Positions 1,672 to 34,702 of a DNA stretch of 64,000 nucleotides are shown here, piece after piece. The DNA comes from Candidatus Moraniibacteriota bacterium (GTDB lineage Bacteria > Patescibacteriota > Minisyncoccia > Moranbacterales > GCA-2747515), in NCBI GenBank assembly GCA_038208115.1, contig JBBQZC010000001.1, forward strand, positions 13,977-77,976, in the 5' to 3' direction. The translations under genes were made by a program, and so were the position numbers. The number at the start of each line of letters is the position of its first letter. The stretch's first letter is position 1. The notes under the pieces were generated by a model, which made no database searches, was not told the origin of the DNA, and saw only the letters and a list, made by a program, of their open reading frames with translations.

Positions 1672-2439
1672 TTATGTGATCTTTTCCTTAGAAAGAAAAG
1701 CTTGGATATCATTAACTGTACCCATGAATTGTGCTGGAAAGATAATTGTCGAATTCTTTTCTACACTGATTTCTGCCATCGTCTGCAAGTTACGTAATTG
1801 CAATGCAATCGGATGTGCTGCCATCACATCAGCAGTCTCTGCCAATTTTTGACTCGCCAAAAGCTCCCCTTCTGCTGCAATGATCTTGGCACGCTTTTCC
1901 CTCTCTGCCTCTGCCTGTTTTGCCATTGCGCGTTGCATGTTTTCTGGGAGTTCTATATCTTTGATTTCAACGACAGATACCAAAACGCCCCATGGCTCTG
2001 TATTACTATCAAGTACTGTGCTAATTTCTCTGTTGATTTCATCTCGCTCAGACAGGACTTCATCCAATTGAAAACGCCCGACGATATTTCGCACTGTCGT
2101 CTGTGCAATCTGATTGATCGCACTGCGCACATCCTCGATGGATACTATACTTTTTTCTGCATCGACAATCTTATAGTAGGCTACAGCAGAGATGTCTACT
2201 GACACGTTATCTTTGGTGATGATTTTTTGTGGTGGAATCGGCAATGTCACAGTACGAAAATCGATTTTGCGCATTTTATCAATATACGGGATAATCCAAT
2301 TAAGCCCTGGATCTCTACTGGAAATGATCTTACCAAAACGAAATACTACACCTTTTTCATATTGTTGCACCACACGAAACCCCGGAAGGACTAGAAATAT
2401 AAAAAACGAGATTATAAACGTAACAATCACGTAGGCCAT
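1672..2439 (-). CDS. SPFH/band-7 (stomatin/prohibitin-like) membrane protein
   Basis: N-terminal TM helix, then a GKIISSRDPGLNWIIPYIDK...VTKDNVSVDISAVAYYKIVD band-7 core and a C-terminal coiled coil (AKQAEAEREKRAKII). Confidence 0.8.
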   Translation of the reverse strand: MAYVIVTFIISFFIFLVLPGFRVVQQYEKGVVFRFGKIISSRDPGLNWIIPYIDKMRKIDFRTVTLPIPPQKIITKDNVSVDISAVAYYKIVDAEKSIVSIEDVRSAINQIAQTTVRNIVGRFQLDEVLSERDEINREISTVLDSNTEPWGVLVSVVEIKDIELPENMQRAMAKQAEAEREKRAKIIAAEGELLASQKLAETADVMAAHPIALQLRNLQTMAEISVEKNSTIIFPAQFMGTVNDIQAFLSKEKIT

Positions 2440-2510
2440 AGATTTATATGTAAATTATTATATGATAACTATAGCATAACCTGCAAAAAAATAAAGCACC
2501 TTTTTATGCT

Positions 2511-3140
2511 TTATAATTCTATATATCCGGACCAACATGTATGATCTTCTGGTATATGTACGATATGAATTTGTTTTTTTTCAAATACTTCTTCTACTGC
2601 TTTTGTCGCTCCTGGACAATGCTCATGCCCATAATCATCAAAATAGATTACACTCGGTCGTGACATAATGGATTTTACATTTTCAGCGCAGTACTTCACA
2701 GGAACATACAGGTCACAATCAATATGTGCAAATGATATGTTTGTAAGATGAAGAGATTCTAAAATCTCTTCGACTTTGCCCTGATACAGAGTTATCCATT
2801 CTGCAAATCCATTTTTCTGAATATATTCTTCCATATCATCCTTTGTCACATCCGCATATTTTCCTACTGGATGCACAGCATGTCCATCTGAATATGGATG
2901 ACCCACAAATGTATCAATACCATATACCTTATACTCTGGACAAATCTTTTTTACTACTTCTGCCAGAGCAAGAAGCGTACCACCACGATATACTCCCACT
3001 TCCAAGACATTACCTGGATTTTTTGCAAGAGTTTCTGCACATTTATCAATTAAATATTGAAGCCGATTTTCAGGAATAACTGTTGTTCCATACGGAACAC
3101 TTTCCACAGGAGAATTCACATTAATTTTCTCTGTTTTCAT
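2511..3140 (-). CDS. Class I SAM-dependent O-methyltransferase (TylF/MycF macrocin-OMT-like)
   Basis: LEVGVYRGGTLLAL glycine-rich SAM motif and a DCDLY motif typical of the TylF family. Confidence 0.6.
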   Translation of the reverse strand: MKTEKINVNSPVESVPYGTTVIPENRLQYLIDKCAETLAKNPGNVLEVGVYRGGTLLALAEVVKKICPEYKVYGIDTFVGHPYSDGHAVHPVGKYADVTKDDMEEYIQKNGFAEWITLYQGKVEEILESLHLTNISFAHIDCDLYVPVKYCAENVKSIMSRPSVIYFDDYGHEHCPGATKAVEEVFEKKQIHIVHIPEDHTCWSGYIEL

Positions 3141-8530: not shown

Positions 8531-9919
8531 TTATTTGATTACTTTTAATTTCTCAAGTGCCATGAGGACGTGAATAGAAAAAACATCAAGAAATTCCAAT
8601 TCTTGTGACGCAATACTGTTATTTCCCTCAAACCCAAGAAATAGAAAACCTTTACATGAATTGTCTGCAATAAATGGAACTACTACAAAATAACTCAAAT
8701 TTCCATTTATATTAAAGTGGGCAATATCATAATATTCACATGAGGAACTTATTGTTCTTTGTTCTTTAATCATTTTTTTGATGAATGCAATTTTTTGCGA
8801 ATCCACTCTTCCAAAAACATTCATTTTTGTCTTATGATATCCCTCTCCAAATACCAAACTAAACAGACCCTTGCTATCATATTTATATATTAAAGCCACA
8901 TTTGCTTGCGAAGAAGTCATGGCAACATTTGTGATATGTGCAAAAAGTTCTTTTTTGTTTTTTTTATAATTTGAGTGCTTATCTATTTCCAATAATGCTG
9001 CAATTTTTCTATTGGAATAACCTACTTGCTCGTAAGCATCGATGAGATTATCTCTAATTTTTTGTTGCAACTCACTTTGAACTACGTGATATTCCTCTTG
9101 ACTTTTTTTTAGATCATAAAACAGTAAGCGATATGGATCCATAAGTCCGATTTCTAAAATGGCCTTATAAATCAAAAGAAATGAAATGTATTTTAGAAAA
9201 TGTCCAAGCATATTCTGGAAATCATAAACATTAATATATCCAGTGAAAATTAACTCTGAAATTACTTTAACGATGAGAGCGAGAGAAAGAAGATTATATA
9301 CTGAAGAATCAAATAATACTTTCTTTTTATAGAGCAATGCGATAGAAACAACAAAAATACCAACAATTACATATTCACTAACTACTTTGAAACGAGTAAG
9401 TCCAGCTGTTTCGGTGTACATATTTGGAAATACATGCCAATAAAATATAGATAGCAACATCAATATTACAATTATCATGTACGTCAGAAATATATAATTT
9501 GCATTGAGTAGAATCCTCCATTGATCTTGAACAGATTTTTTTCTTAAAATAATAAACGCTCCAATAAATGAAAATGCCTCAAGATAGCGTGCACTGATCC
9601 AGAGTTGTGTAGGAAGATTGGTCGTGTGATCCATAAATATATTCATTCCCTTATAACTCAAAACATGTAGCAAATCTAAGCCACCGACAAAAAAATAACC
9701 AATTCCCAGAATAAGCAGATAGTAGTTGCTCACAAAACTTTTTGACGACCATGCGACAGCAAATATGCCGAAAGATATGACTACGGTGAAAAGTTCGATG
9801 AGAGAATGAAATAATAAATAACTATGCAAACTGGTCAATTGTAATACGAAACAGCTCACAATAATCCCTAGTGGGAAAACAAGTTTTCTTATTGCTTTTT
9901 TGTCTGCATTCATATGCAA
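8531..9919 (-). CDS. Membrane sensor protein: multi-TM (MASE-like) N-terminal domain + cytoplasmic GAF-like domain, no obvious output domain
   Basis: About 8 predicted TM helices in residues 1-260, then a GAF-like region (FSLVFGEGYHK...YFVVVPFIADNSCKGFLFLGFEGNN). There is no kinase, GGDEF or HTH. Confidence 0.5.
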   Translation of the reverse strand: MHMNADKKAIRKLVFPLGIIVSCFVLQLTSLHSYLLFHSLIELFTVVISFGIFAVAWSSKSFVSNYYLLILGIGYFFVGGLDLLHVLSYKGMNIFMDHTTNLPTQLWISARYLEAFSFIGAFIILRKKSVQDQWRILLNANYIFLTYMIIVILMLLSIFYWHVFPNMYTETAGLTRFKVVSEYVIVGIFVVSIALLYKKKVLFDSSVYNLLSLALIVKVISELIFTGYINVYDFQNMLGHFLKYISFLLIYKAILEIGLMDPYRLLFYDLKKSQEEYHVVQSELQQKIRDNLIDAYEQVGYSNRKIAALLEIDKHSNYKKNKKELFAHITNVAMTSSQANVALIYKYDSKGLFSLVFGEGYHKTKMNVFGRVDSQKIAFIKKMIKEQRTISSSCEYYDIAHFNINGNLSYFVVVPFIADNSCKGFLFLGFEGNNSIASQELEFLDVFSIHVLMALEKLKVIK

Positions 9920-10132
9920 AAATGTGCTCAGTGGATAAATTTTTTTTGCGATTTATGCAACTAAAACCAAACGTTATCATTAAATATGAATCAGATTACA
10001 ATATCAACAAACACTACAAAATCTAATACGCGATCATTTAACAAAAAATATAAAACAAACCATATTCCACACAATACAAATCGCATCGAATTATCAAATT
10101 AATAAGCTGTCACCGCATTACACAATTAACTA

Positions 10133-10678
10133 TTATTCCGTTCTGGTATCTAGAGCAGTTACTTTTTGATCACGCTCTTTGTCAGCTTCTGGATCACTAA
10201 AACTTTTATCCTCCGTGTCGTTAGAGTTGTCTGGTGTTAAGTTCTGGTCCGATTCAGTGATTTGACTACCATCATTTGCCTGATCGACGTCGACACTATT
10301 TAGATTATTTTCTTCATCTGGCGTATCTACATCGGGATGGATAGGGTCTTCCGTCTCACTCGGCAAGTCAGTATCGGGACTACTTGACAAATCTTCTACA
10401 GCCACATCAAAGACAGTTACAGTATCATTTGGAGTTTCTTTTTGCGTAGAAATCTCCTCCACATCACCAAGCAGCAAATTACCGTCTTCACGAACTTCGC
10501 GTAAGAGTGCACCCTCTTCCGTCCACGTGGAAGCGATAAAAAAATTTTCTGAGGATTTTTCTTTATCAACAAAAATGGCATTCGTGCCACTGATACGATT
10601 TGCATTCATCATCAAAAAAACCAAAAACATGGCAAAGGAAATTTTTTTTATTGATTTAAAAATTGTTTTCATGATCAT
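10133..10678 (-). CDS. Small acidic secreted protein with a SipW-cognate-type signal peptide
   Basis: N-terminus MIMKTIFKSIKKISFAMFLVFLMMNANRISGTNAIFVDKEKSSENFFIAS resembles the TasA/SipW-cognate signal class. The rest is D/E/T/P-rich. Confidence 0.55.
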   Translation of the reverse strand: MIMKTIFKSIKKISFAMFLVFLMMNANRISGTNAIFVDKEKSSENFFIASTWTEEGALLREVREDGNLLLGDVEEISTQKETPNDTVTVFDVAVEDLSSSPDTDLPSETEDPIHPDVDTPDEENNLNSVDVDQANDGSQITESDQNLTPDNSNDTEDKSFSDPEADKERDQKVTALDTRTE

Positions 10679-10682
10679 ATGT

Positions 10683-11423
10683 TTACAAACCCATCCTTCT
10701 CCTCGCTTTTATTATTTTTTCTGGAACGATCTCTGTATTTTTGAAAGTAGCTTCCTGCGCTCTACTTTCGCCCGTGTAACGAAAATACTCTTCTTTGAGG
10801 GGATAAAATTCATCAAATTCCTGAATTCTACTTTTTCCCGTGAATCGGATAGGTTCTTTTTTGAGAGGATGAAATTCCTCCAGAATCTCGCTTTTTCTCT
10901 TTCTCCTTTTGTAGCTCTTCACTATTTCATCCTTAATATTCTTGATCTCTTCGTAAATAATTACCACTGCTGGAATGATCACGAGAAGAATGAATCCTGG
11001 CATCGTACGTGCATATCCAATCGGATAACCGATGTATGGGATTATGAAAATTTCTTTGCCGACAACATTACTTTGACTGGTCATCTCACCGTCCACATCC
11101 TCATTGGCATCACCCTTGGTTTTATATGAGATCTTTCCATTATCATTATTTATAGAAACAATGCGATGTGTAATCGTCACTTTCGAATCATTGGTTGCGC
11201 GAGTCACGATGTCACCGACATTATAGTTAGACATGGATTTCACAAAAATAAGACTGCCTGTATGTATCGTCGGTTCCATGGATCCAGATTGTACTGTATA
11301 AACCTTATAATTCCCTTTGATGGGTAAGAAAGTTATCACTATCAAAGCGAGGAATGACAAAATCACTACCCATATAAAACTTCCTATTATTTTGATGATC
11401 TTTGCTGTCATATCTTTTTTCAC
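10683..11423 (-). CDS. sipW: Signal peptidase I, SipW type (archaeal/eukaryotic-like S26B)
   Basis: N-terminal TM, then SGSMEPTIHTGSLIFV (catalytic Ser box) and GDIVT...ITHRIV (His box); C-terminal TM and basic tail. Adjacent to TasA-like genes. Confidence 0.8.
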   Translation of the reverse strand: MKKDMTAKIIKIIGSFIWVVILSFLALIVITFLPIKGNYKVYTVQSGSMEPTIHTGSLIFVKSMSNYNVGDIVTRATNDSKVTITHRIVSINNDNGKISYKTKGDANEDVDGEMTSQSNVVGKEIFIIPYIGYPIGYARTMPGFILLVIIPAVVIIYEEIKNIKDEIVKSYKRRKRKSEILEEFHPLKKEPIRFTGKSRIQEFDEFYPLKEEYFRYTGESRAQEATFKNTEIVPEKIIKARRRMGL

Positions 11424-11444
11424 TTATATTTCACATTATTGGTG

Positions 11445-12518
11445 TCAAAACCAATGATACTTTTCATGTGCACACTTTTTGTTTACACACGCATCATGTG
11501 TCTTTGGATTTTTGTCATCACAATCATCTTTTCCTCGACACGATGGATGCACACAATCATTGTTGACGATCCCATCGCAATCATTGTCCACATAATCATC
11601 ACAAATTTCCTCAACTGGCAGTACTTCACCTTTGCACTTTCCCCAACGTCCATCACGAGTACACGTCTCCAGACCGCTCCGACAACTACCAATATCTTTT
11701 GTGGTAGAATTGCCAGAATAACACGCACGTGTCGACCGTGGGACACATTTATCCGTATCACCTACAGTGATATCAGCACATCGAAAACTCTTATTTTTAT
11801 CTGACTGTTTAGCATAAAACTCAATATCAGCCTTATACGAATCGGTTTGTATGATGTTGCCGACAGAATCCAAAACAGTCCAACTGACTCCGAGATAGTA
11901 ATCTTTATTTTGTGTGAGTGGTCCGATATTTCCGCTAAAGACATTTGTATTTTCGCTATCCGCCAAAGGCAGTATAAGTGTTTGGAGAGGTCCTGTCCCG
12001 CTAGTTAATAACTGATCACAGTTAGGCTGATAAATATTATCGCCTGGTTTCACATGATTTTTTTTACAGACATCAGCCCACACTGTGAAATTGAGATTTT
12101 GTGCCAACTCTCCATCCCATGCATTAGAATTATTTTCTGCATCATCCTCGAGCAATTCCGGCTCGACAGAACTTATATCATCATTTTCTGTTGGGCGGAT
12201 GATCGCACAACCCCATGCGTCCTGATTTTTGAGATGTAAGCTAATTGTTCCCTCTCCCCAATCACCTGGTTTTACATCATCAAAGTTAAAAAACTTTTGA
12301 TGTGTAAGATCTTTTTGTCTCCAGTGTCCAGCATTTGGATTCCCATCTACATCCTTGTTATAATAACCAGCATAATCGATTTCCAAATCGAGTTTCTTCT
12401 TGGAGTATGTGTTCCAAATCGGCTCCTGACCCTGTACAAAACAAGCATATGCCTCATAGCCACCCATCGTTGCGATGATTGCTATGATAATAAGACTTTT
12501 GTAAAAACGCTTTAACAT
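11445..12518 (-). CDS. Secreted TasA/camelysin-like domain protein with a cysteine-rich C-terminal metal-binding-like module
   Basis: Signal peptide. FNFDDVKPGDWGEGTISLHLKNQDAWG is shared with the two downstream paralogs and resembles the TasA core LSNLKPGD. The C-terminus has CxxC...DNDCDG...C repeats. Confidence 0.55.
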   Translation of the reverse strand: MLKRFYKSLIIIAIIATMGGYEAYACFVQGQEPIWNTYSKKKLDLEIDYAGYYNKDVDGNPNAGHWRQKDLTHQKFFNFDDVKPGDWGEGTISLHLKNQDAWGCAIIRPTENDDISSVEPELLEDDAENNSNAWDGELAQNLNFTVWADVCKKNHVKPGDNIYQPNCDQLLTSGTGPLQTLILPLADSENTNVFSGNIGPLTQNKDYYLGVSWTVLDSVGNIIQTDSYKADIEFYAKQSDKNKSFRCADITVGDTDKCVPRSTRACYSGNSTTKDIGSCRSGLETCTRDGRWGKCKGEVLPVEEICDDYVDNDCDGIVNNDCVHPSCRGKDDCDDKNPKTHDACVNKKCAHEKYHWF

Positions 12519-12564
12519 AACTTCTTTTTAATCAGGAGATTATATTTTGTCATTTGCTCTTTGG

Positions 12565-13932
12565 TTAGGCTCCATCAAACCCAACTGGGTTGTTCTCATA
12601 TTGTTCAATTTCAAAAGTAATATCTGATTCAAATATATCTGTTTGTGCTTCATTACCCGTATCAGATGGCAATTCCCAACCGATGCCAAAATAGTAGGTC
12701 ACGCCAGAAGTCATGTGACCGTCCGCCGTAATTCCAGTAGCGAGGACATTTCCATTATCTGCATATGCTGCGAGAATTGCATCTGTAATAAGCCATTCTT
12801 CTCCACCAGCATCGACCGCACCTGGTTCGATGAGTACTATTTCTCCATCTTGCTTGATGTTGTCACCCTCACCGATGTCATTTCCCTTACCTTGAAAACC
12901 AGCCGTCACACCAGAATCCAGCCATACCTGAAAATCCAAATTTTCCCGAAGTTCACCCTTACCATCAGTACATGCGCTCCCCTCCGCTTCTTCTTCTGGA
13001 TCTACACAGGTACCATCTTCATCTTGCGTCACATCTACCACCATTTTTCCCCACGCGTCTCCATTGCTAATATGCAGACTGACAGTATTTTCTCCCACAT
13101 CACCAGGTTTTATGTCACCAAAATTGAAGAGTTTGTTAGTAGGCCCAAGATCAGTCATTGTCCACGTATTGTCACAACTCACACCATCGAGATCTTGAAC
13201 TGTAGACTCCGGACAATTCATCTCATGGATATCAACATTATCCAAAAACATGCCTAATTGATCATCTACTCCTGTTTCTTCAAAAATTATTTTTACTGTA
13301 CCCACAGTTGGTCCCGTGATAATCTGCGAAAATGAAGTCCATACAAAAGGATCGACTGAGGACAGAGAGGCATCAAGAATCACCGAATTGTCAAAAGTAA
13401 CTTTCAATTTGTTATCGTCGTGACCTGGTCGTGGTGCATATTTAAATGATATTAAATATTTTCCACTAGAGACTGCGCTGATATCCTGTGATAATTTAAC
13501 TGGGTAAAAACTATCCAATTCTACATATTGATTTCCATCAAATGCAGTAGAACCCAGGCTGATGTCATTTTCCTGATATTCCAAACCTTCAACATCTCCA
13601 GGCCCAGGCGTTCCTTCGACGATCCACGGTGCGATATCACCTCCTGAAAATATCTGCCAATGATCTGTATTATCAACATCAGGATCTTCAAAACTGCCAT
13701 TTGAGACCAAATTATCACCTACTGTCTCACAACTGGACTCATCAACCCATACTCCATCTTGACAGACGAAGCCATTATAATGTGCGGTACTGTCCACCTC
13801 CAAATCCAAACTATCAGCCATAAAAGTATTGCCTGTGGACGTCTCTGCATCTGAGAAAAAAGACCACGTAGCGCCAGAGGCAATCGCACCGACTACAGTC
13901 ACGATCGCCATACTTTTAAATATTTTTTTCAT
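12565..13932 (-). CDS. Secreted TasA/camelysin-like protein with SipW-cognate signal peptide
   Basis: N-terminus ...GATWSFFSDAETSTGNTFMADSLDLEV (SipW-cognate class). Core FNFGDIKPGDVGENTVSLHISNGDAWG. Confidence 0.6.
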   Translation of the reverse strand: MKKIFKSMAIVTVVGAIASGATWSFFSDAETSTGNTFMADSLDLEVDSTAHYNGFVCQDGVWVDESSCETVGDNLVSNGSFEDPDVDNTDHWQIFSGGDIAPWIVEGTPGPGDVEGLEYQENDISLGSTAFDGNQYVELDSFYPVKLSQDISAVSSGKYLISFKYAPRPGHDDNKLKVTFDNSVILDASLSSVDPFVWTSFSQIITGPTVGTVKIIFEETGVDDQLGMFLDNVDIHEMNCPESTVQDLDGVSCDNTWTMTDLGPTNKLFNFGDIKPGDVGENTVSLHISNGDAWGKMVVDVTQDEDGTCVDPEEEAEGSACTDGKGELRENLDFQVWLDSGVTAGFQGKGNDIGEGDNIKQDGEIVLIEPGAVDAGGEEWLITDAILAAYADNGNVLATGITADGHMTSGVTYYFGIGWELPSDTGNEAQTDIFESDITFEIEQYENNPVGFDGA

Positions 13933-13975
13933 AAAGCGTATATTATTAATTATATTTTAAAATTAAAATCTTTAT

Positions 13976-14005
13976 CCTCTCGCTCAGAAAAAATTGAGCG
14001 AGAGT
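13976..14005 (-). terminator. Intrinsic terminator hairpin after the 14027..15439 gene
   Basis: CCTCTCGCTCAgaaaaaatTGAGCGAGAG: a perfect 10-bp stem in an AT-rich context just 3' of the stop. Confidence 0.5.
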
Positions 14006-14026
14006 AAAAAGTATTAATAAAATACT

Positions 14027-15439
14027 TTAATTTGAGAAATCTGAGATTTCCCCATTAAAATCAATCCAATCGACATATCCAGTATCACCAGATGGTCCAG
14101 GCTGTCCAACGCGAACACCCAACCATGAATCAGTTGAACGTGTTTCGGCATTTGGATAATCCGCAAGGATTTGTGCCCATGTCTTGACTGTTGTTCCAGG
14201 AGTCGTACCTGTAACATCAACTAATCCAATTGGCCAAGTTGCACCCGAATAAGTCCATGAACCTGTAAGTGCATCTACAGTTGTCCACGTATTTGATACT
14301 AGACCAACAGGGACCTGGACAAGTCTTTTTTGCCAAATGTCAGTGTTATTGAAGTCGATATTGAAATTAAGGAATGGCGTGCCGTTCGAAGAATCAATGT
14401 CGTATATACGATATTTAAGAGAAGTTATACCAGACAATTTAACATCATTGTAGCGATAGGTTGCGATGTTGTAACGAGGATTGACACCGCTATCCAAAGT
14501 CATTTGTGCTGCTCCCGTAGATCCCGGACCAGCAACTATGTCATCAATGCCTGCAGTACCGCTAAACTGATTGATTGACATGATTGTGTCATTGGTATCA
14601 TTGTAGAAAAACCATCTGCCGCTTGTTTTTGCTGAAACCAGACTACTAGATTCTATATCATTAGCAGTTATCCCATTATTTCTTGGGGCCGGACAAGCAA
14701 AGTTGTCATTATTTCTCGCTTGTTCAATGTAGAACCAAACATCACCAATTAATGAATCGGATTGCGAAATATTTGTCACAGCCGAACCACTACAATTCAG
14801 GGTTCCGTTTTCAATTCCACTGATTGTTCCATAGCACCAATACAATCCCAGATATTTAGTAGTTGCACCAGTCAGTGTTCCCAAATCATAAGCCTTACCA
14901 GACAAAACATCACTAGCTGGTCCAAAAAATGGATTTGCAAATAAAGGATATTCTCCTGATTCCCAGATATTGTCACCATCAAGATCATCCCAAGCAAAAA
15001 CATTAAGTTCCTGTGCCAACTCTCCTTGGCCTATCCCACCAGTCGTGTCAAATTTGCTTTCTGGTTCAGTAATCCCGTTGTCATCACTTTTCATCTTGTC
15101 AAAAATAACACAAGCTCTCGCGTCATTATTTATAACATGAAGACTTATTGTATTTTCACCCTCGTCCCCTGGCTTTAAATCAGCAAAATCGAAAAACTTT
15201 TGATTTGTGATATCAACACCTGGACTATCTTGACCCCATGTTCCCGCTGGATACGAAGCTCCATTATACGTTGCTTGACTATCAACCTTCAAATCAATTG
15301 AACCAGCCGTAAAATTGTTTCCAGTAGATGTTTCCGTATCACTAAAGAATGAATACGTTCCGTACCCTGCAATCGCAGCGACAGATAGTACGATTAGTCC
15401 GCTTTTGATCATTTTTTTCATAATTTTTTGTTCCCTCAC
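14027..15439 (-). CDS. Secreted TasA/camelysin-like protein with SipW-cognate signal peptide
   Basis: N-terminus ...AGYGTYSFFSDTETSTGNNFTAGSIDLKV. Core FDFADLKPGDEGENTISLHVINNDARA. The likely true start is MKKMIKS (about 15421), with a GAGGGA SD. Confidence 0.6.
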   Translation of the reverse strand: MREQKIMKKMIKSGLIVLSVAAIAGYGTYSFFSDTETSTGNNFTAGSIDLKVDSQATYNGASYPAGTWGQDSPGVDITNQKFFDFADLKPGDEGENTISLHVINNDARACVIFDKMKSDDNGITEPESKFDTTGGIGQGELAQELNVFAWDDLDGDNIWESGEYPLFANPFFGPASDVLSGKAYDLGTLTGATTKYLGLYWCYGTISGIENGTLNCSGSAVTNISQSDSLIGDVWFYIEQARNNDNFACPAPRNNGITANDIESSSLVSAKTSGRWFFYNDTNDTIMSINQFSGTAGIDDIVAGPGSTGAAQMTLDSGVNPRYNIATYRYNDVKLSGITSLKYRIYDIDSSNGTPFLNFNIDFNNTDIWQKRLVQVPVGLVSNTWTTVDALTGSWTYSGATWPIGLVDVTGTTPGTTVKTWAQILADYPNAETRSTDSWLGVRVGQPGPSGDTGYVDWIDFNGEISDFSN

Positions 15440-15619: not shown

Positions 15620-15926
15620 AAAAAGCCAATGGAATCTCACCAGTTCAACTGATGAGATAACATTGGCTTTTTAATACAAATGTTAATTTTGTTATGGTAC
15701 ATTCACCCGTAATTAATTTAATAAACATAAAAACCGACTTAAACCAAGAGAGTAAAAACTCTCTGACTCTAAGCCGGTTTTGCTATTTGACTCCCCACAC
15801 GCTCATTAGCAACCAATAGTTTCTGAACTTCATGAAACTCTTGCGTATGGATCAATGTCTCTTAAATAATTTTAAAATCACTCTGTTTTAAAATTTTATC
15901 ATAGGTTGTTAATTCATACAAATCAA
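15620..15926 (-). ncRNA. Structured leader RNA, copy B (promoter, conserved core, terminator hairpin 1, second strong hairpin), 5' of a TasA-like gene
   Basis: Minus strand: TTGATT-17-TATGAT (plus 15921-15926 and 15898-15903). Core UUAAGAGACAUUGAUCCAUACGC...UUGGUUGCUAAUGAGCGUGUGGGGAGUCAAAUAGCAAAACCGG. Hairpin plus U-run at plus 15720-15775. Second hairpin with flanking A and U tracts at plus 15620-15672. Confidence 0.55.
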
Positions 15927-16776: not shown

Positions 16777-17358
16777 CTATCTCATAATCTCATGAAGCAA
16801 CTCTGGAAATGTACTCGTACCCAATTCGCTTGTTCTATAGTGCCCTTTTCCTGTCAATTCGATTACTCGACCGCCTAGTGCATCATGGAAGATTTCCACG
16901 CTCTTTTTACCATCCTCACTTTCATCGTCTGCAGTAAAAATGACAATATCCTCCACTCTCTTTGTAATGGCTGTGTCTATATCATATGTATAAAAAGATA
17001 CTCTTCCACTATCGTCTTTATTGGCTATTTTCCATGGTGCTACAAGGATAAGTTTTGCTATGCTTCGTTGGGATTCTCCCAGCCAACGGACCAAAAAAGC
17101 ACATGCGCAACTGTGTCCGACGAGAATCGTTTTTTCATTAACATCATATTGTTGTAATTTTGTTTTAAATTTTTCATAATCAGGCGCCCATGAAAAAGGC
17201 ATCAGAGGTGCGTCTGCCATTATACTCTCTTTTATCAATTCTTCTTTTATCCACATAGTCCAATGATTTTCTGCAGTTCGTTGCGTCAGTTGTATGGCAT
17301 TCTCTTGATCATATTCGCAACCATGTATAATAATGCAGTTTTTTTGTGAATGAATCAT
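16777..17358 (-). CDS. Alpha/beta-fold serine hydrolase (YdeN/RBBP9-like esterase)
   Basis: About 190 aa with a nucleophile elbow ILVGHSCAC (GHSxG-like) and a C-terminal GKGHY. Confidence 0.55.
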   Translation of the reverse strand: MIHSQKNCIIIHGCEYDQENAIQLTQRTAENHWTMWIKEELIKESIMADAPLMPFSWAPDYEKFKTKLQQYDVNEKTILVGHSCACAFLVRWLGESQRSIAKLILVAPWKIANKDDSGRVSFYTYDIDTAITKRVEDIVIFTADDESEDGKKSVEIFHDALGGRVIELTGKGHYRTSELGTSTFPELLHEIMR

Positions 17359-17482: not shown

Positions 17483-17791
17483 AAAAGACCATGGCATCCC
17501 ACCAGTTAAAAACTGGTGGGATAGCATTGGCTTTTTAATGCAAATGTTAATTTTTTATGATACATTCACCCACATTTTTAATATTATAAAAATAAAAACC
17601 GACCTAAACCGAGAGAATATATGTTCTCTGGTTCTAAGCCGGTTTTGCTATTTGACTCCCCACACGCTCATTAGCAACCAATAGTTTCTGAACTTCATGA
17701 AACTCTTGCGTATGGATCGATGTCTCTTAAGTAATTTTAAAAAAACTTTGTTTCTTAATTATATCATAGCTTATTTATTCATACAAATCTA
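17483..17791 (-). ncRNA. Structured leader RNA, copy C (near-identical to copy B), 5' of the hydrolase gene
   Basis: Minus strand: TAGATT-17-TATGAT (plus 17786-17791 and 17763-17768). The same core as B with 3 substitutions. Terminator hairpin at plus 17594-17650. Second hairpin at plus 17483-17537, with the stem covarying relative to B (CCCACCAG/CUGGUGGG versus CUCAUCAG/CUGGUGAG). Confidence 0.55.
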
Positions 17792-18002: not shown

Positions 18003-20666
18003 CTAGATTGAGGGATTATTTTTCTTTGGAAAAAACGACCAGTCTATAGCGAGATAAAAAGCAACTATAGCCATTAGCCAAATCCAGAATGGTAGTCTAT
18101 CAGATGACTGCAGCTCACTGTCAACGATCGCATTTAGATATTCATTCGGTTTTGACTGGAGATCTTCCAGAGTAACAGGTAATTCTGCAGCATCAGCGAA
18201 GTTGATTAGGCTTGCATAGCCCAAAATTGTAAGTGCATTATAGTCTTTGTTGCTTTCCACTTTTTCTCCATATCCATCTTCACCCTTCGCATTGGTTGCA
18301 TATGCAATATCTGTCTTTTTTCCTGGATTATTCACTGAAAGTTCGTATTTAATCAAAATTTTATCACCCTTTTCCATACTGCCGATCTGCCAGGAATACG
18401 CAACTAATTCTGTATTGTTTTCATCAAGCATTTTGTCTTTGACTAAAATATTATAGATTGTACTATCTCCTGTATTTTCTACGATGATGGTGTTTTGGAT
18501 ATTATCACCAGGTATCACTGAAGCGCCAGCACTACTAATCCTCTTGATGTCAATCTCTGAATCCACATCTTCATCATCATACATAAATTCATCCCCATCA
18601 GATATACTATCAGCAGCAGCATCGTCAGCTACTTCATCGTATTGGTGTATCACCGATGTATCATCCGTAGCGTGATTATTATCTAATTTTACTTCTTTGG
18701 TCGCTGTCGAGATTTCCGCCACAACATGCATACGACTCTCCACATTTTCTGTTTTTTTAACTTTTGCATGAACGATGAGTGTTTTTTCTTCTCCTGCTTT
18801 CATCCCTGGCAAATCCCACGACGTTTGATCTGCCGATATTTCATCAGGCAATGTGAGATCAATCGTGGTCGCCTCACAATCAGCCTGTCCCGCGTTTTTA
18901 TACTGAATCGTATAATCGATGGCCTGTTCTGGTGACACCTGATCCAATCCATCGTCGATAGAAATAGTGAGGTCAGGATAGGCAAATTCGATATCTCCTT
19001 GCCAATGACCCATATTATTCACGACTCCAAAAAACCAATTATCACCAATGATATTGGTATTGATCATATTGAATATATTGGTAACAGCCGAGGCATTTCC
19101 GGTCGTGATATTTCCGCCTGCATTATTACCTCCTGTAAGTGCTGTTGTCTCCACGGTATTATCCACGTGTGCATGATTATTATTGTACACAGTGAGTGCT
19201 CCTACAGGAGATGCGTCGATGGACTCATGACTATCGATATCATACGCCAAGACATCACTCAAATTATCATTACCCCAATTCAAAAGCGTTCCATTCCAAC
19301 TCCCCATATTATTTACCAAGAGCAAAAACCAGTTATTTTTAATGATATTTGTATTGATGACATTTACCACATTCGTTGCAGAGATCGCATCACCAGTCTG
19401 AATGGTCGTAGAGTATGCAGAAGAGTTATTTCCTGTATCAGCTGTTGTCACCATGGTATTATCTACATGTGCATCGTTCTCATTGACAATCACCGTGTCA
19501 CGGAATACACGTGGAGATCTTGTCGTAAGCAATCCCTGACCCGGCACAATCAGATCTCCGATCCAATTCCCAAAAATATTTACATTTGCGAAAAGCCAGT
19601 TTTCACCTATGATATTTGTATTGACATGATTGACAATATCAGTGATAGCGGTCGCACTGCCAGTATTCACATCCACATCGCCTATCAATTCATTTGCGCC
19701 AGTAATTGCTTCTGTTATCACATTGTTTGTTAATTCAGCATTATTTATATTTGTAATCGCCGCACTGATGACATTGCTTCGGTCCTGTGCATCAGAAATA
19801 ATGTGGTGAAAAATTTCGAGAAGATTAATATCACTGACATAATCACCATAAATGTCTATGTTCAGATAATCCCCATTTTGCGTGATCACATTTGTATTAA
19901 TATCATTATTGACAATCGTCACACTCGCAGCATCTCCTGTTTCTACTTGTACAGCCTCATCTGCCTGAACCTGATTATGTGCATCATTGTCTACTATTTG
20001 GTCATACTGTTCATTTTGGCCAGTATTTGCAATTGTCTCTCCATCATTTGAGATCACAGCGTCGTTCACATTTTCAATCAGTACTTCTGGACAAGTTTCA
20101 GGACATATTACAGTCTCTTCACTATCGTCATACTCCTCACCATTTTTTTCATCATTTTCTGGATTAACCTCTCTAGGACACGCGCACGCATCGACGATAT
20201 TTTCTCCGGCAGGCATTGTTTGCACTGACTCTCCAGCAAGAGTAGCCTTATCCAACACATTTTCAGACACATTTACATCTGTCGTCAACGCACTAGCTGG
20301 ATTTGATTCATTTTGCTCTATAGAAGACACCGCTTGTGCAGTCGATTCCGACATAGAAGGATTTTTATCTGCATCATCTGTTTTTATGTCATCTTCATGA
20401 TCATTAGCTGTATCATCCTGTGCAGTTATGTCAACTTCCTCACTTTCAGATTTTTCCTCTGCTTTTTTATCACGTGAATCATCTGCGATTACATCTTCCT
20501 TTGCCTCATTCGTTATTGCAGTCTCTTCGGCATGTACGTAAAAAACAGGACAAAGCTGTCCGCATATTAAAAAAAATATCATAAAATGAGCAAGTATTTT
20601 GGGAAAGCGTCTTTTTTTCATCATATATTTATTACCACGTGTTCGGCTAATTATACGTATTTTCAC
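18003..20666 (-). CDS. Large secreted, cell-surface-anchored repeat protein (887 aa)
   Basis: Signal peptide, an acidic N-region, three about 100-aa internal repeats (..NTNIIGENW/NNW..NIFGNW/MGSWNGTL..), a DUF11/CARDB-like beta domain and a C-terminal hydrophobic anchor (LPFWIWLMAIVAFYLAI). Confidence 0.6.
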   Translation of the reverse strand: MKIRIISRTRGNKYMMKKRRFPKILAHFMIFFLICGQLCPVFYVHAEETAITNEAKEDVIADDSRDKKAEEKSESEEVDITAQDDTANDHEDDIKTDDADKNPSMSESTAQAVSSIEQNESNPASALTTDVNVSENVLDKATLAGESVQTMPAGENIVDACACPREVNPENDEKNGEEYDDSEETVICPETCPEVLIENVNDAVISNDGETIANTGQNEQYDQIVDNDAHNQVQADEAVQVETGDAASVTIVNNDINTNVITQNGDYLNIDIYGDYVSDINLLEIFHHIISDAQDRSNVISAAITNINNAELTNNVITEAITGANELIGDVDVNTGSATAITDIVNHVNTNIIGENWLFANVNIFGNWIGDLIVPGQGLLTTRSPRVFRDTVIVNENDAHVDNTMVTTADTGNNSSAYSTTIQTGDAISATNVVNVINTNIIKNNWFLLLVNNMGSWNGTLLNWGNDNLSDVLAYDIDSHESIDASPVGALTVYNNNHAHVDNTVETTALTGGNNAGGNITTGNASAVTNIFNMINTNIIGDNWFFGVVNNMGHWQGDIEFAYPDLTISIDDGLDQVSPEQAIDYTIQYKNAGQADCEATTIDLTLPDEISADQTSWDLPGMKAGEEKTLIVHAKVKKTENVESRMHVVAEISTATKEVKLDNNHATDDTSVIHQYDEVADDAAADSISDGDEFMYDDEDVDSEIDIKRISSAGASVIPGDNIQNTIIVENTGDSTIYNILVKDKMLDENNTELVAYSWQIGSMEKGDKILIKYELSVNNPGKKTDIAYATNAKGEDGYGEKVESNKDYNALTILGYASLINFADAAELPVTLEDLQSKPNEYLNAIVDSELQSSDRLPFWIWLMAIVAFYLAIDWSFFPKKNNPSI

Positions 20667-21053: not shown

Positions 21054-21584
21054 TTATTTGTTGATTGTAATATTGGAGGTACCTACGACATTCGTAAGAA
21101 GCATTTGTGCACCAGCGTAACCTGTCGTGACACTTCCTTTACCAATTTTGTTCTTTCCGGTATTAGCAGCAGTGATAACCATATTACCAATATTAGCATT
21201 GCTAGTGGTATTGATAGATACAGCACCTTGTGCAGGCATTGTGACTTTTATGGTTGCATCACCAGCGCCATTTCCCACTTCTGCCATAGCCTCAGCGTTA
21301 CCAGTAGTAATTGAGCCAGCTGAACTAGGATGATTATCATGACTGCGAGAATCCATCGTTTGCCCGCCTTTGGACAAATTTAACCCAGTATTACTAAGAG
21401 TCATAATTTTATTGGCAATAGTAGCATTGCTTGTGGTCGTAAGAGTCAAACTTGGACAACATGTGTTTTCACAATTGTTGCAATTGTGATCATCATGTCC
21501 CATTGTTGGAGCTTTAGCGAAAACTACGTTTGCTGTCAAAGCGAAAGCGAAAGTTGCTACTCCAAAGATTATTAATTTTTTCAT
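21054..21584 (-). CDS. Small secreted repeat protein related to the N-terminal repeats of the 887-aa surface protein
   Basis: Signal peptide, a Cys cluster (HNCNNCENTCCPS), then repeated T/N/G-rich units (TSNATIANKIMTLSNTGLN / TTSNANIGNMVITAANTGKN). Confidence 0.5.
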   Translation of the reverse strand: MKKLIIFGVATFAFALTANVVFAKAPTMGHDDHNCNNCENTCCPSLTLTTTSNATIANKIMTLSNTGLNLSKGGQTMDSRSHDNHPSSAGSITTGNAEAMAEVGNGAGDATIKVTMPAQGAVSINTTSNANIGNMVITAANTGKNKIGKGSVTTGYAGAQMLLTNVVGTSNITINK

Positions 21585-21791
21585 GCGTGTTTCACCTTCC
21601 TTTCTAGCTTAATCTGTTGAATAGACTTAAATTGATCCAACAGATTTGATATTACCAGCTGAGAGTTTCATGAACGCTTCAGCTGATCTTGACTTTTTAT
21701 GTGTCTACAAATTAAGTGCGGATGCACCAATCGTGATTTGTACATTCGTACGCAATTCACCCGTTTGCCTTTTGGGACAGGCAATTTGTAG

Positions 21792-22102
21792 AAAAAAAGC
21801 CAATTGCATCACACCAACCGACGTTGATAGTATGCAATTGACTTACAAAATTCAATTTGTATCTAGAAATAGACATTTCACCCGTACTTAATTTTTACGA
21901 AATAAAAAAACCGACTTATATCAAAAAACTCCTGTTTTTTGAATTAAGCCGGTTTTGCCATTTGACTCCCCACATGCTCGTTAGCAACCAATAAAGTTTC
22001 TCATCTCTTTAGAAACCCATGCATGTAGATCAACATCTCTTAAATATATTCGATTTTAAATTCAACTTTATTGAAGTATACCATTTTCAAAAAATCGCAC
22101 AA
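21792..22102 (-). ncRNA. Structured leader RNA, copy D, 5' of the small secreted repeat protein gene
   Basis: Minus strand: TTGTGC-16-TATACT (plus 22097-22102 and 22075-22080). Core UUAAGAGAUGUUGAUCUACAUGC...UUGGUUGCUAACGAGCAUGUGGGGAGUCAAAUGGCAAAACCGG. Terminator hairpin at plus 21904-21960. Second hairpin plus U-tract at plus 21792-21845. Confidence 0.5.
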
Positions 22103-22356
22103 GTTGAGTTATCCACAGTCCCCTCCATTTTAAAAAATACTCACTATAGAACTCTTTTATCAAAATCTCATACTACACATATGTAACTACGAAAAAATAT
22201 AAAAACCATTCCCATGCGCGAGACTGTTTTTTTTAAACATACAGTGTGACGAAAATTTATGAGAAATGCACTTTCTGCGTCTCCCACCAGGTAGTAGATG
22301 ACTATATTGTCATTTATTGGTTCTCATGATAAATTAAGTGCATATCGATTAGTTCT

Positions 22357-28305: not shown

Positions 28306-29304
28306 TTAATGAATCGGCGTTACATTTTTTGTATAGGAATTATTTCCTTCATCACTTTCATCAACGTCTGCATCAGAATCTACGACCGCCTTTGTCGTAT
28401 AATTCGCCCATCCACCATATGTATAGTCACACTCCACCGTTTCACTATCTCCCACTTTAAGGATATCGATTTTCTCGTGACACGCTCTGCTACCAGTAAC
28501 CGTTGGCCACCATTCCCAATAAAAATCTTCTGCATCGGTTTCGCCCTTGTTTTTAATCTTGAAGCTCACAGTGAACTCTTCTCCCTGCGTAGGATCATGA
28601 TTAAACTTATAATCACTAATGGACAGATCAGCCTTTTCTGCTACAGCAATCTCTTTTTTGCTTACATTATTATTCTCATCAATTTCATCATTTTCATCTT
28701 TTGTGTCTACAATGAACTTTGACGCATAGTCATCTACTTCATTATATACATAATCACACTCGATCATCTTTGTCGCACCGACAGCCAATCCATCTTCATC
28801 ACCTTTGCAATCACGACCGGAACTTGTCGGCCACCATTCCCAGCTGAAAGATTTTGACGCTACCGTGCCTTTGTTTCCTACAACAATCTTTGCCGTAAAC
28901 TCATCTCCAATCTTTGGGACTTCTCCGAGATCATAACTTTTCACATAGAGATCCGGCTTCTTTACAACATTTTTTGTTGCTTCGTCCGTATTTTTAGAGT
29001 CATTCACAGCGGGGGCATTTGATTCTTGTGTGATGCTCGGTGGCTTCGCTGTTGTGTCAACAGTGTTCTCACCAGAAGTTGTGGTTTTTTGTGTTTCCAT
29101 TTCATTCGGTTGACCATCATCCGATTTTTTTAGTGCGTAAACTACAAGAAATCCAATCAAAACAACTATTAAAACGACAAGGAGAACGGTCATAACCCAC
29201 TGAAACGGCGTAAACTTTTTTGAAGACTGAATATCCAAAGGGTGCTCAGTTACTTCCGTCGGCTTTGCGTCATTTTTTTCTATCGACATTGGTTCGTTTT
29301 CCAT
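28306..29304 (-). CDS. Membrane-anchored protein with two CARDB-like domains
   Basis: N-terminal TM (type II), a T/P-rich linker, then two about 110-aa repeats (VGNKGTVASKSFSWEWWPT... / IKNKGETDAEDFYWEWWPT...CDYTYG) typical of CARDB. Confidence 0.55.
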   Translation of the reverse strand: MENEPMSIEKNDAKPTEVTEHPLDIQSSKKFTPFQWVMTVLLVVLIVVLIGFLVVYALKKSDDGQPNEMETQKTTTSGENTVDTTAKPPSITQESNAPAVNDSKNTDEATKNVVKKPDLYVKSYDLGEVPKIGDEFTAKIVVGNKGTVASKSFSWEWWPTSSGRDCKGDEDGLAVGATKMIECDYVYNEVDDYASKFIVDTKDENDEIDENNNVSKKEIAVAEKADLSISDYKFNHDPTQGEEFTVSFKIKNKGETDAEDFYWEWWPTVTGSRACHEKIDILKVGDSETVECDYTYGGWANYTTKAVVDSDADVDESDEGNNSYTKNVTPIH

Positions 29305-29491
29305 CGATTTATTGTTAATTTTTACAGATATTCATTTAACAACAGTATACCATAAAAATCGTGAAATATGCGTAATTTGATGTCCTTGTTTTCTTTCGCG
29401 TATACGCATCTCTAATTTATTATTTTGCGAGAAAACACAAAATTCCCCGCAAAGTGAGCCATTTCTGACTCCATACTCATTCCTGGATATG

Positions 29492-29537
29492 ACTGTTCAA
29501 GGTAGCCCTCACGAGGAGATTTTTACCTTGAACAGTT
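29492..29537. repeat. Perfect 13-bp inverted repeat (hairpin) at the island boundary
   Basis: ACTGTTCAAGGTA-n20-TACCTTGAACAGT between the AIPR-like gene stop and the CARDB gene start. Confidence 0.5.
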
Positions 29538-29695
29538 TTGCAAACCACGCACCAATACGGCGGTTGGGCTTGTGCTTAAGTAACATATTCAGTTATCACC
29601 TACACTTTATCATTCATCTTAACTATGTCTAATTAAGGAGCTTTTTTTTATTTTTTAACATAATTAAATTAGTTTTTCCTAAATTTTGCCATATT

Positions 29696-30904
29696 TTACC
29701 TTTTATTTCTAACCAACTGATCCATCTTCAAATCCAAAGTTGTCCAAACTAAACGACTTTTTGCAAATGTTTGCGGCTCATAGCCAACCTCCTTTAATGC
29801 CTTTTTATAAGGTAATGCAATATCTTGCAAGTTCTCTTCTAAAAATTCTGATGGATTTTTTGAAAACTTCAAAATACCATTATCTTCAACTAATAAATTT
29901 CTAAAAGATGCAAAGAGAGGATAAATCCAACCAGCTGGGATTGCATAATCAACTTCATCATCAATATATGGCAAAAGAACTCTTCGTTGTTTAACTACAA
30001 GATCTCCACTTCTTTTCTCTATAGTCCTAAAGTCATCTCCTAAAATCTTTGGCATATTTAGATTAATATTATCCCAAAGTTCAACAATATCCGGCAACAA
30101 CCTTGTATATTTTGCAACATTTTTTTCATCAAACATTTTTTCAAATGTTTCCAAAACCTTTTTTTTACTTGAATATGCTTCAATTGGTACATTTTCACCT
30201 TCAATTGGATATTTATCAATATTATATGCAACCAAATATCCAACCAGATCTGCAACTTTAATTTTTTTAACTCTTCCGTCATCATCAGTCTCATATTCAG
30301 AATATGATATTTGATTTTGGTACGGCTTACCATCTACAGCAACTTTAATATCATCAAATACATTCATCATATTATACAAAGTTTCTTTTCTGACCTGCAA
30401 TGCTGTATTTCTACTTTCCACAATATCTGTAACAGACTCTCTTGTATTAAAACCAACCAAAAATTCAATCTTTAAATACACCTCATCTTTAGCCAACTCA
30501 TCAGTGCTATCTGAAAAATAGTCTTTTAAAACATCGTATGTATGACCACCATCTGCAATTCCATGAAAACTTCTGTTATTTAATGTGATTGTAATTGATT
30601 GATTTTTATTATCAAAAACAAAATCATCTGCAAGCATCAAAAGCCCTTTATTACGATAAAAAAACTGATCGGGGCTATCATCAAGAGTCTCGCGCATTGC
30701 TTTCCACGCAAGTGAGCTTCTACGAGGTTCTCGTGGATTTATTGCACGAAATGCATCTAATTTATCAGCTTGATTTATAAATGCCATCGCATTCACAGTA
30801 ACAACAAATGACTTAATTCCTTTCTTTTCGTGACCAGGCACTACAGACAATTTCTTGACTGCATCATTATCAAAAACTGGTAACGTAATTACAACATCTT
30901 TCAT
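29696..30904 (-). CDS. AIPR-like (abortive-infection phage-resistance) family protein, putative
   Basis: 402 aa. The N-terminal region has NPREPRRSS...YRNKGLLMLADD...HGIADGGHTY, reminiscent of AIPR/DGQHR-type Abi proteins. Family assignment is from memory and not verified. Confidence 0.35.
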   Translation of the reverse strand: MKDVVITLPVFDNDAVKKLSVVPGHEKKGIKSFVVTVNAMAFINQADKLDAFRAINPREPRRSSLAWKAMRETLDDSPDQFFYRNKGLLMLADDFVFDNKNQSITITLNNRSFHGIADGGHTYDVLKDYFSDSTDELAKDEVYLKIEFLVGFNTRESVTDIVESRNTALQVRKETLYNMMNVFDDIKVAVDGKPYQNQISYSEYETDDDGRVKKIKVADLVGYLVAYNIDKYPIEGENVPIEAYSSKKKVLETFEKMFDEKNVAKYTRLLPDIVELWDNINLNMPKILGDDFRTIEKRSGDLVVKQRRVLLPYIDDEVDYAIPAGWIYPLFASFRNLLVEDNGILKFSKNPSEFLEENLQDIALPYKKALKEVGYEPQTFAKSRLVWTTLDLKMDQLVRNKR

Positions 30905-31138
30905 AATTAATATCTTAAAAAATAAAAAATTCGCACCTACAAAATGCGAATAAAGACACTAATCAATTTATATTTATAATATAAACTCTCTAGATTGATA
31001 ATATCCCCATTGCCGATCTTTCGATACAACACTTTGATAGTTTCCACTAATCTTTAGGTACAATGCTATCATATCACAGCAGTCCTATTTTGTCAATGTT
31101 TTATTAAAGAGAAAAAGTATGTTAATCCGTGCATCTCA

Positions 31139-31981: not shown

Positions 31982-32046
31982 ATAATTTTATCTAAATTAT
32001 AATCTTGATAAATTTTAACATTTATTATACTTATTCTCAACACAAC

Positions 32047-33212: not shown

Positions 33213-34702
<1,490 letters not shown>

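Follow-up and report, generated by a model that had tools for sequence, protein, structure and literature searches.

Which RNA class, if any, accounts for a set of related leaders that recur ahead of surface genes in an ultra-small bacterium? The question is raised by a stretch of 64,000 nucleotides from a Candidatus Moraniibacteriota bacterium (assembly GCA_038208115.1, contig JBBQZC010000001.1, positions 13,977 to 77,976), referred to here as the window. On its minus strand lie four homologous leaders, A (~1404-1595), B (15620-15926), C (17483-17791), and D (21792-22102), at the places where an earlier note on this DNA had put them. That note took them for a riboswitch-type family of cis-regulatory leaders serving surface and matrix genes, a description that proved right in kind and wrong on class. 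Their aptamer is a divergent subfamily of the class-II cyclic di-GMP (c-di-GMP) riboswitch clan (Rfam clan CL00127), as homology, fold, and covariation show, and its 3' part overlaps a terminator. Taken as a whole, we consider it likely that these leaders of a bacterium of the candidate phyla radiation (CPR) combine a divergent c-di-GMP-II-clan aptamer with a terminator-based ON switch for surface genes.

A divergent class-II aptamer

A covariance model (R1) built from family members that carry an insertion in the loop of paired region P3 scored the four copies at 94.1 (A), 109.1 (B), 106.1 (C), and 96.0 (D) bits, with E values of 1e-23 to 5e-28. Both this model and a regular expression found exactly four copies in the 64 kb, with no other credible match, and the core that the earlier note had read, UUGGUYGCU..GAGC.U..GGGGAGU...GC.AAACCG, is present in each. 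Copies B and C lie within a duplication of ~385 nt (89% identity); A and D are far more diverged, and their differences from B and C are largely paired substitutions. The aptamers themselves, which comprise P1, P2, a kink-turn, P3 with its loop insertion, and a pseudoknot, span 1440 to 1545 (A), 15764 to 15870 (B), 17629 to 17735 (C), and 21939 to 22048 (D) on the minus strand, as placed by R1, by the Rfam family RF01786, and by a second model (R2) described below. The UUAAG that marks the aptamer start lies at 1540, 15865, 17730, and 22043, respectively.

When the whole window was scanned with Rfam at the gathering thresholds, only a 16S rRNA and a LOOT RNA were reported, and no known family appeared at the leader sites. 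Once the thresholds were relaxed, RF01786, the c-di-GMP-II riboswitch, came out as the best match of each copy, over model positions 1 to 84, with scores of 27.7 (A), 28.9 (B), 23.8 (C), and 30.7 (D) bits and E values of 4e-4 to 5e-3; the alignments carry an insertion of 36 to 42 nt in the P3 loop. The scan reports only the best clan member per site, here RF01786 at 24 to 31 bits, so the variant family c-di-GMP-II-GAG (RF03169) can score no higher than RF01786 at the window copies and stays below 40 bits. The unrelated GEMM-I fold (c-di-GMP-I, RF01051), which shares the ligand and the kind of regulon, gave no match at the four sites even with permissive thresholds. A known Rfam element explaining all copies therefore exists in substance (RF01786), with every score below the curated threshold.

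Relatives provided the link to sequences that Rfam does recognize. The exact core pattern TTGGTYGCT..GGGGAG..GCNAAACCG, searched in one genome per species, returned 32 loci from Saccharibacteria, Moraniibacteriota/Parcubacteria, Actinomycetota, and Chloroflexota. Seventeen of the 32 were scanned with Rfam at gathering, and 11 of these 17 hold compact aptamers above the threshold. RF03169 was passed by 11 compact aptamers at 10 loci, at 40.5 to 56.3 bits, and one locus (L030) passed as RF01786 at 54.4 bits; loci with an insertion like that of the window copies fell below gathering. The two groups nevertheless recognize each other: R1 scored the Rfam-passing compact members at 29 to 41 bits, and R2, built from the 12 Rfam-passing compact sequences only and run on the window with filters off, returned the four copies as its top four matches (A 26.9, B 32.3, C 29.4, and D 25.5 bits; E values of 9e-8 to 1e-5), the next match scoring 15.3 bits. 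Because the relatives pass Rfam and the reciprocal test returns the window copies, the element is a divergent member of the c-di-GMP-II clan and not a new class. The earlier failure to match the core to c-di-GMP-II is thus overturned by the full-model RF01786 alignments, the Rfam-passing relatives, and the R2 hits.

All recovered members of the insertion-bearing subfamily come from Moraniibacteriota/Parcubacteria metagenome-assembled genomes (MAGs), one Chloroflexota MAG, and metagenome contigs without a taxonomic label. A metagenome scan aimed at the insertion type yielded seven loci, of which two repeat a genome locus and a third is of another type; either the subfamily is rare or the metagenome search pattern was too strict. 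Two of the compact loci hold more than one aptamer. A Dehalococcoidia MAG (L019, 6729 to 7370, plus strand; L039 is identical in sequence) carries a tandem array of three compact class-II-type aptamers spaced by ~260 to 300 nt, and in the Chloroflexota MAG of L030, a c-di-GMP-II aptamer (2357 to 2440, minus strand) and a c-di-GMP-I-GGC variant (2948 to 3038, plus strand) lie ~500 nt apart on opposite strands, pointing away from each other.

The fold was examined in 14 insertion-type sequences: the four window copies, five from Moraniibacteriota/Parcubacteria MAGs (L007, L014, L017, L027, and L031), four from metagenomes (L033, L034, L036, and L038), and one from a Chloroflexota MAG (L013). After alignment to R1, their pairing was scored against a specified structure, pseudoknot included. 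Of all cells, 92% can pair, against 85.1 ± 0.9% in column shuffles (0 of 500 shuffles as high), and a control in which partners were slid by 1 to 3 columns gave 30 to 46%. Changes on both sides of a pair occur at 14 pairs, spread across P1, P2, P3, and the pseudoknot. P1 (UUAAG/CUUAG), in which relatives swap G-C for A-U or G-U, is 87% paired, with both-sided changes at 5 of 6 pairs, and is followed by one unpaired A; P2, a 3-bp helix read as GAC/GUC here and GGC/GCC in relatives, is 98% paired (2 of 3 pairs changed); and P3, of 8 to 9 bp, is 92% paired (6 of 9). P3 is the helix that had been noticed to covary between copies. That covariation is real, with arms of UCCAUACGC/GCGUGUGGG in B and C, UCUACAUGC/GCAUGUGGG in D, and UCCGUGCG/CGUACGGG in A; the strings first given for A, B, and C agree with these, and the one for D starts one base later, at UACAUGC.

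Between P2 and P3 lies the sequence signature of a kink-turn, a 3-nt bulge followed by tandem G.A/A.G pairs; its GA/GA (columns 18 to 19 and 84 to 85) is invariant in 14/14 sequences, and a kink-turn is present in the c-di-GMP-II structure 3Q3Z (PMC4316175). The pseudoknot, which we propose forms the ligand pocket, joins the P3 loop (UUGG-U-YGCU) to the 3' tail next to P1 (RGCR-A-AA-CCGR). The UUGG-CCGR part pairs in 100% of cells and YGCU(A)-(U)RGCR in 89%, and columns 66 and 96, which the search pattern left free (Y and N), show U-A eight times and C-G six times. The subfamily is recognizable by two features. One is an insertion of 20 to 30 nt in the 5' part of the P3 loop, which forms a hairpin in B, C, D, L033, L036, and L027 and folds weakly in the others; the second is one extra nucleotide directly after the 3' strand of P2 (P2').

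Set beside c-di-GMP-II as known from Clostridium acetobutylicum (RF01786; 3Q3Z), the window copies have the same order of P1, unpaired A, P2, kink-turn, P3, and pseudoknot and share the 3' segment ...GAG-P2'-A..U.GC..AACCG.., the association with adhesion and matrix genes, and a predicted terminator-based ON logic. They differ from it in their scores (24 to 31 bits against a gathering threshold of 53.5), in the added loop insertion and post-P2' nucleotide, in a short P1 (5 to 6 bp), and in the pocket floor, which has U-A in place of G40-C68; of the pseudoknot pairs beside it, the canonical C-G and A-U are here C-G/U-A and G-C. The host also differs, being a CPR bacterium here and Firmicutes there. 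The histidyl-tRNA synthetase (HisRS) of the window shares 80 to 83% identity with proteins assigned to Patescibacteria group bacterium and Candidatus Moraniibacteriota bacterium, and SRR19962012 contains an identical contig.

Pocket residues were provisionally mapped onto the 3Q3Z sequence at an offset of 6; this numbering agrees with all 13 residue identities listed for the ligand contacts, and the sequence aligns with the RF01786 consensus. Those contacts to c-di-GMP are A13, A14, U37, G39, U60, A61, C68, A69, A70, C71, C72, G73, and A74 (PMC7288161). In this numbering, U37, G39, A61, A69, A70, C71, C72, and G73 are kept in all four window copies, A13 is kept in B, C, and D (G in A), and A74 is kept in A (G in B, C, and D). 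At A14-U60, copies B, C, and D have the G-C of the RF01786 consensus, whereas copy A has G.U. An A takes the place of C68 in every copy, and its partner G40 is changed to U, an isosteric Watson-Crick swap. The U40-A68 pair is shared with c-di-GMP-II-GAG, as are the GGUCGC/GCGA pseudoknot sequences, and the compact relatives retrieved with the window core pass the RF03169 threshold; the G69 that defines that variant, however, is A in the window, giving GAA in copy A and AAA in the other three. All retrieved relatives have A69 as well, there by virtue of the search pattern. Since A69 is kept, the element is not a c-di-GMP-II-GAG member.

Terminator overlap and surface genes

Each aptamer runs into an intrinsic terminator-like hairpin (T1) whose 5' arm is made of aptamer sequence. 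T1 lies at 1404 to 1457 in A (-22.6 kcal/mol; 6-U run), 15729 to 15781 in B (-27.8 kcal/mol), 17594 to 17646 in C (-24.7 kcal/mol), and 21904 to 21956 in D (-23.3 kcal/mol; 7-U run), all on the minus strand and with the U-run ending at the first coordinate of each. In A, the 5' arm comprises the ligand-site AAA together with the 3' strands of the pseudoknot and P1; in B, where the same pseudoknot and P1 strands overlap T1, 14 of the first 14 nt are paired. A T1-type hairpin of -18 to -29 kcal/mol followed by 5 to 7 U residues was present in 13/13 folded insertion-type sequences, and in these 13 the AAA, pseudoknot, and P1 strands contribute 12 to 14 paired nucleotides to the first 14 of the arm. 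Because T1 reuses the ligand-site adenines and the 3' strands of the pseudoknot and P1, aptamer and terminator are mutually exclusive; ligand binding should therefore block termination, which makes the element an ON switch. That direction in vivo is what the overlap predicts.

These results support a model in which, in the ligand-free state, T1 would recruit as its 5' arm the ligand-site adenines together with the 3' strands of the pseudoknot and P1 (AAACCGGCUUAG), halting transcription ~135 nt beyond P1. Binding of c-di-GMP would keep those nucleotides within P1 and the pseudoknot, so that T1 could not form and RNA polymerase would read on. High c-di-GMP would thereby turn on four targets: the gene for a glycosyltransferase family 2 (GT2) polysaccharide synthase, an operon for TasA-like fibres and SipW, and the genes for a hydrolase and a secreted repeat protein. 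We regard c-di-GMP-dependent antitermination as the most likely function, with good though not high confidence. The same arrangement has been described in Clostridioides difficile, where class-II riboswitches are terminator-based ON switches for pili and adhesins, the ligand preventing the terminator (PMC6366702). There, too, several copies (Cdi-2-4 at pilA1, and Cdi-2-3 and Cdi-2-1 at adhesin genes) each precede a surface-structure gene; unlike the window copies, they are canonical aptamers above the Rfam threshold, and no second terminator module has been described for them.

The distance from T1 to the start codon is 231 nt in A, 308 nt in B, 236 nt in C, and 320 nt in D, as first estimated, and the position upstream of surface and matrix genes was likewise supported, with Pfam matches for three of the four. 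Copy A precedes a membrane GT2 glycosyltransferase resembling chitin and hyaluronan synthases (1 to 1173, minus strand, running off the window; Glycos_transf_2, 9e-32; Chitin_synth_2, 2e-11). Copy B precedes an operon (8531 to 15421, minus strand) whose Pfam matches and homologues, named "TasA family" or "SipW-dependent-type signal peptide," identify two TasA/camelysin-like proteins (14027 to 15421 and 12565 to 13932) and a SipW-like signal peptidase (10683 to 11423). The operon also encodes a 357-aa and a 181-aa protein, and its last gene specifies a MASE3 membrane sensor (8531 to 9919; E value of 6e-82). The C-terminal ~200 aa of the MASE3 protein match no Pfam output domain (GGDEF, EAL, or HisKA). 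An alpha/beta serine hydrolase (16777 to 17358, minus strand; Ser_hydrolase, 6e-13) follows copy C. Behind copy D lies the gene for a 176-aa secreted repeat protein (21054 to 21584, minus strand) that has no Pfam match and matched only itself among 5.8 billion proteins; it may be cotranscribed with the gene behind it, which encodes an 887-aa DUF11 surface protein (18003 to 20666).

The same kinds of genes follow the aptamer in nine relatives. They include GT2 synthases (L007, L017, and L038), tandem TasA-like proteins (L014), and giant immunoglobulin-like or SpaA-like surface proteins (L034, L031, L033/L036, and L027).

The promoters named in the earlier note correspond to promoter-like hexamers at the same places. 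They read TTGTTG-17-TATAAT in A (1567 to 1595), TTGATT-17-TATGAT in B (15898 to 15926), TAGATT-17-TATGAT in C (17763 to 17791; homologous to that of B within the duplication), and TTGTGC-16-TATACT in D (22075 to 22102), all on the minus strand. A consensus scan of the window (37% G+C) found 31 sites against 28.5 expected, not above chance, and the predicted promoters instead draw their support from the family: a comparable -35/-10 pair ends 23 to 31 nt upstream of P1 in 12 of 14 members from different genomes, a conserved position relative to P1. This spacing places the predicted transcript start ~20 to 25 nt before UUAAG, and not at UUAAG as had been proposed.

A DnaA-box-like 9-mer, TGTGGATAA, stands 6 to 7 nt upstream of the -35 hexamer in copy D (22109 to 22117) as an exact match and recurs at the same position before the riboswitch promoters of L034 and L031 in other genomes; its counterparts in B and C are TGTGCATAA and TGTGAATAA. 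With up to one mismatch, it has 40 matches in the window against 25 ± 4.8 expected, 33 of the 40 on the minus strand. It could be a transcription factor site or a strand-biased genomic motif.

Second terminators, ligand identity, and competing readings

Several observations weigh against a c-di-GMP-responsive T1 switch. No copy reaches Rfam gathering (53.5 bits for RF01786 and 40 bits for RF03169). The residue mapping onto 3Q3Z is provisional, cross-checked only by the 13 residue identities, and among relatives positions 36 to 40 and 65 to 73 were fixed by the search pattern (UUGGUYGCU and GCNAAACCG), so that conservation there is by construction and independent evidence comes from the four window copies only. 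In the pocket floor, U-A takes the place of G40-C68, as in c-di-GMP-II-GAG, a variant for which three papers that name it give no ligand; the main text of Weinberg et al. (2017) gives no description of the GAG and GCG variants. The 64-kb window holds no GGDEF motif, although reports of diguanylate cyclase genes from MAGs of Patescibacteria (PMC9938205) lend plausibility to the ligand. In seven other relatives, the TasA-like operons, fetched in a search for further copies or homologues of a second terminator (T2), lack the element: no Rfam family was found in them, and their leaders show no conservation with each other or with the window. Finally, in B, C, and D a strong-looking T2 stands between T1 and the gene and, if constitutive, would block the proposed read-through. 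As an observation on one TasA-like operon of a relative (L041, 3299 to 4000, plus strand; 65% protein identity), its leader of ~700 nt ends in a terminator-like hairpin, contains no riboswitch or Rfam family, and is not conserved in other relatives.

The second module bears on the strongest competing explanation. The leaders had been described as ending in a hairpin plus U-run; that a terminator expression platform is present was correct, but B, C, and D have two such terminators in succession and A has one. In B, the module (15620 to 15710, minus strand) consists of the box ACGGGUGAA (15702 to 15710), a small hairpin of which the box forms one arm, and T2 (15620 to 15672); in C (17483 to 17575, minus strand), a box variant, GUGGGUGAA, precedes T2 (17483 to 17536); and in D (21756 to 21885, minus strand), the box (21877 to 21885) precedes T2 (~21792 to 21840) and is repeated after it (21756 to 21764). 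T2 is a near-perfect symmetric hairpin with a U-run and an A-run at its 5' flank, located 55 to 70 nt after T1, and its pairing is kept between B/C and D by compensatory changes. A leader peptide between T1 and T2 was considered and rejected, since the reading frames differ among B, C, and D. No small open reading frame is conserved. Pairing of the box with the downstream leader or ribosome-binding site was rejected as inconsistent between copies. T2 may be leaky, a second regulated step, or the end of a ligand-gated small RNA. With only three T2 sequences, two of them recent duplicates, the covariation is thin and too few sequences are at hand to decide among these.

It is conceivable that B, C, and D are riboswitch-gated small RNAs or two-input attenuators, whose transcripts would stop at T1 under low ligand and run on to T2 under high ligand, the genes being controlled indirectly or by a second signal; the extra segment of ~110 nt with its ACGGGUGAA box would then act in trans or require a second factor for T2 to be passed. 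The length and near-perfection of T2 and its compensatory changes speak for this, as do the facts that all three exact matches to ACGGGUGAA in the 64 kb fall in these leaders and that the interval from T2 to the start codons holds no predicted sigma-70-like promoter. However, neither copy A nor any of the nine relatives has T2 or the box, and in the relatives the gene begins 70 to 180 nt after T1; with one mismatch allowed, the box shows no enrichment in the window, at 11 matches where 8.9 are expected; the T2 sample is the small, partly duplicated one just described; and the aptamer with T1 is fully explained without the second module. We therefore rate this explanation as doubtful, while giving it some weight. 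Comparable, minor weight goes to the proposal that B, C, and D are composite two-stage devices and, separately, that the aptamer changes specific to CPR, namely, the U40-A68 pair, the extra nucleotide by A61, and the P3-loop insertion, could move ligand specificity away from c-di-GMP. In a two-stage device, the aptamer may gate T1 read-through into the ACGGGUGAA box, the small hairpin, and a bidirectional-looking T2. The second module could in that case be a second-signal AND gate for the matrix genes, or it could complete a c-di-GMP-dependent small RNA of ~250 nt.

The preferred reading also requires that the ligand be c-di-GMP, which is probable. A class-II fold that in a CPR subfamily binds another cyclic or linear dinucleotide, such as 3'3'-cyclic GMP-AMP, cyclic di-AMP, or pGpG, or a different metabolite would resemble the variants that Rfam keeps apart from c-di-GMP-II as classes of their own. 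Pointing in that direction are the U-A pocket floor, found in 14/14 sequences as in RF03169, the extra nucleotide after P2', which adjoins A61, the scores below the RF01786 threshold, and the lack of a GGDEF motif in the window. Yet the GAG and GCG variants are defined by positions 69 and 70, and here both are A, as in canonical c-di-GMP-II; a U-A Watson-Crick pair is isosteric with the G-C pair that it replaces; the best clan member for the window copies is c-di-GMP-II and not GAG; and adhesins, fibres, and an exopolysaccharide synthase make up a classic c-di-GMP regulon (PMC6366702). A different ligand thus appears improbable.

The earlier idea of a riboswitch or small RNA class unrelated to known families, for which the lack of any Rfam family at gathering would speak, is already contradicted by the full-length, if subthreshold, RF01786 alignments of all four copies, by the continuity with Rfam-passing relatives in both R1 and R2, and by the helices, kink-turn, pseudoknot, and pocket nucleotides held in common with class II, and we consider it very unlikely. 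A dispersed DNA repeat or mobile-element remnant without RNA function would fit the 385-nt duplication of B and C but is scarcely credible, given that compensatory helix changes account for most of what separates A and D from B and C, that the element is always in sense orientation with a promoter-like site before it and a terminator and gene after it, and that other genomes hold it in the same context.

Implications and other features of the window

Because Rfam gathering thresholds miss elements of this kind, c-di-GMP riboswitch regulons in Patescibacteria/CPR bacteria have probably been undercounted. A literature search for c-di-GMP riboswitches in Patescibacteria found none. Four switches lie within 22 kb, and the genes behind them encode a processive GT2 synthase, TasA-like fibres with a SipW peptidase, a hydrolase, and a secreted repeat protein. 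Such an arrangement suggests c-di-GMP as the signal by which an ultra-small bacterium, probably host dependent in view of general CPR biology, times the building of an attachment matrix. The subfamily is also a natural test of how much the class-II fold tolerates, with 20 to 30 nt inserted in a pseudoknot loop and the pocket-floor pair swapped. The main value of the finding lies in annotation and CPR biology, and the second-terminator module is a lead for transcriptomics.

Elsewhere in the window, the LOOT RNA (RF03000; 29456 to 29570, minus strand) scored 64.2 bits against a gathering threshold of 46.4 and lies between the genes for a CARDB-domain protein (28306 to 29304) and an AIPR abortive-infection-type protein (29696 to 30904). 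A complete 16S rRNA gene (33214 to 34702, minus strand) is solitary: no 23S rRNA, 5S rRNA, or tRNA gene was found in the 64 kb, which indicates that the rRNA genes are unlinked. A search for att-like direct repeats around the phage-type integrase next to the 16S gene returned none. This integrase gene (32047 to 33087) lies 127 nt past the 16S rRNA 3' end, and the region from 28306 to 33087 looks like an integrated island adjoining the 16S gene.

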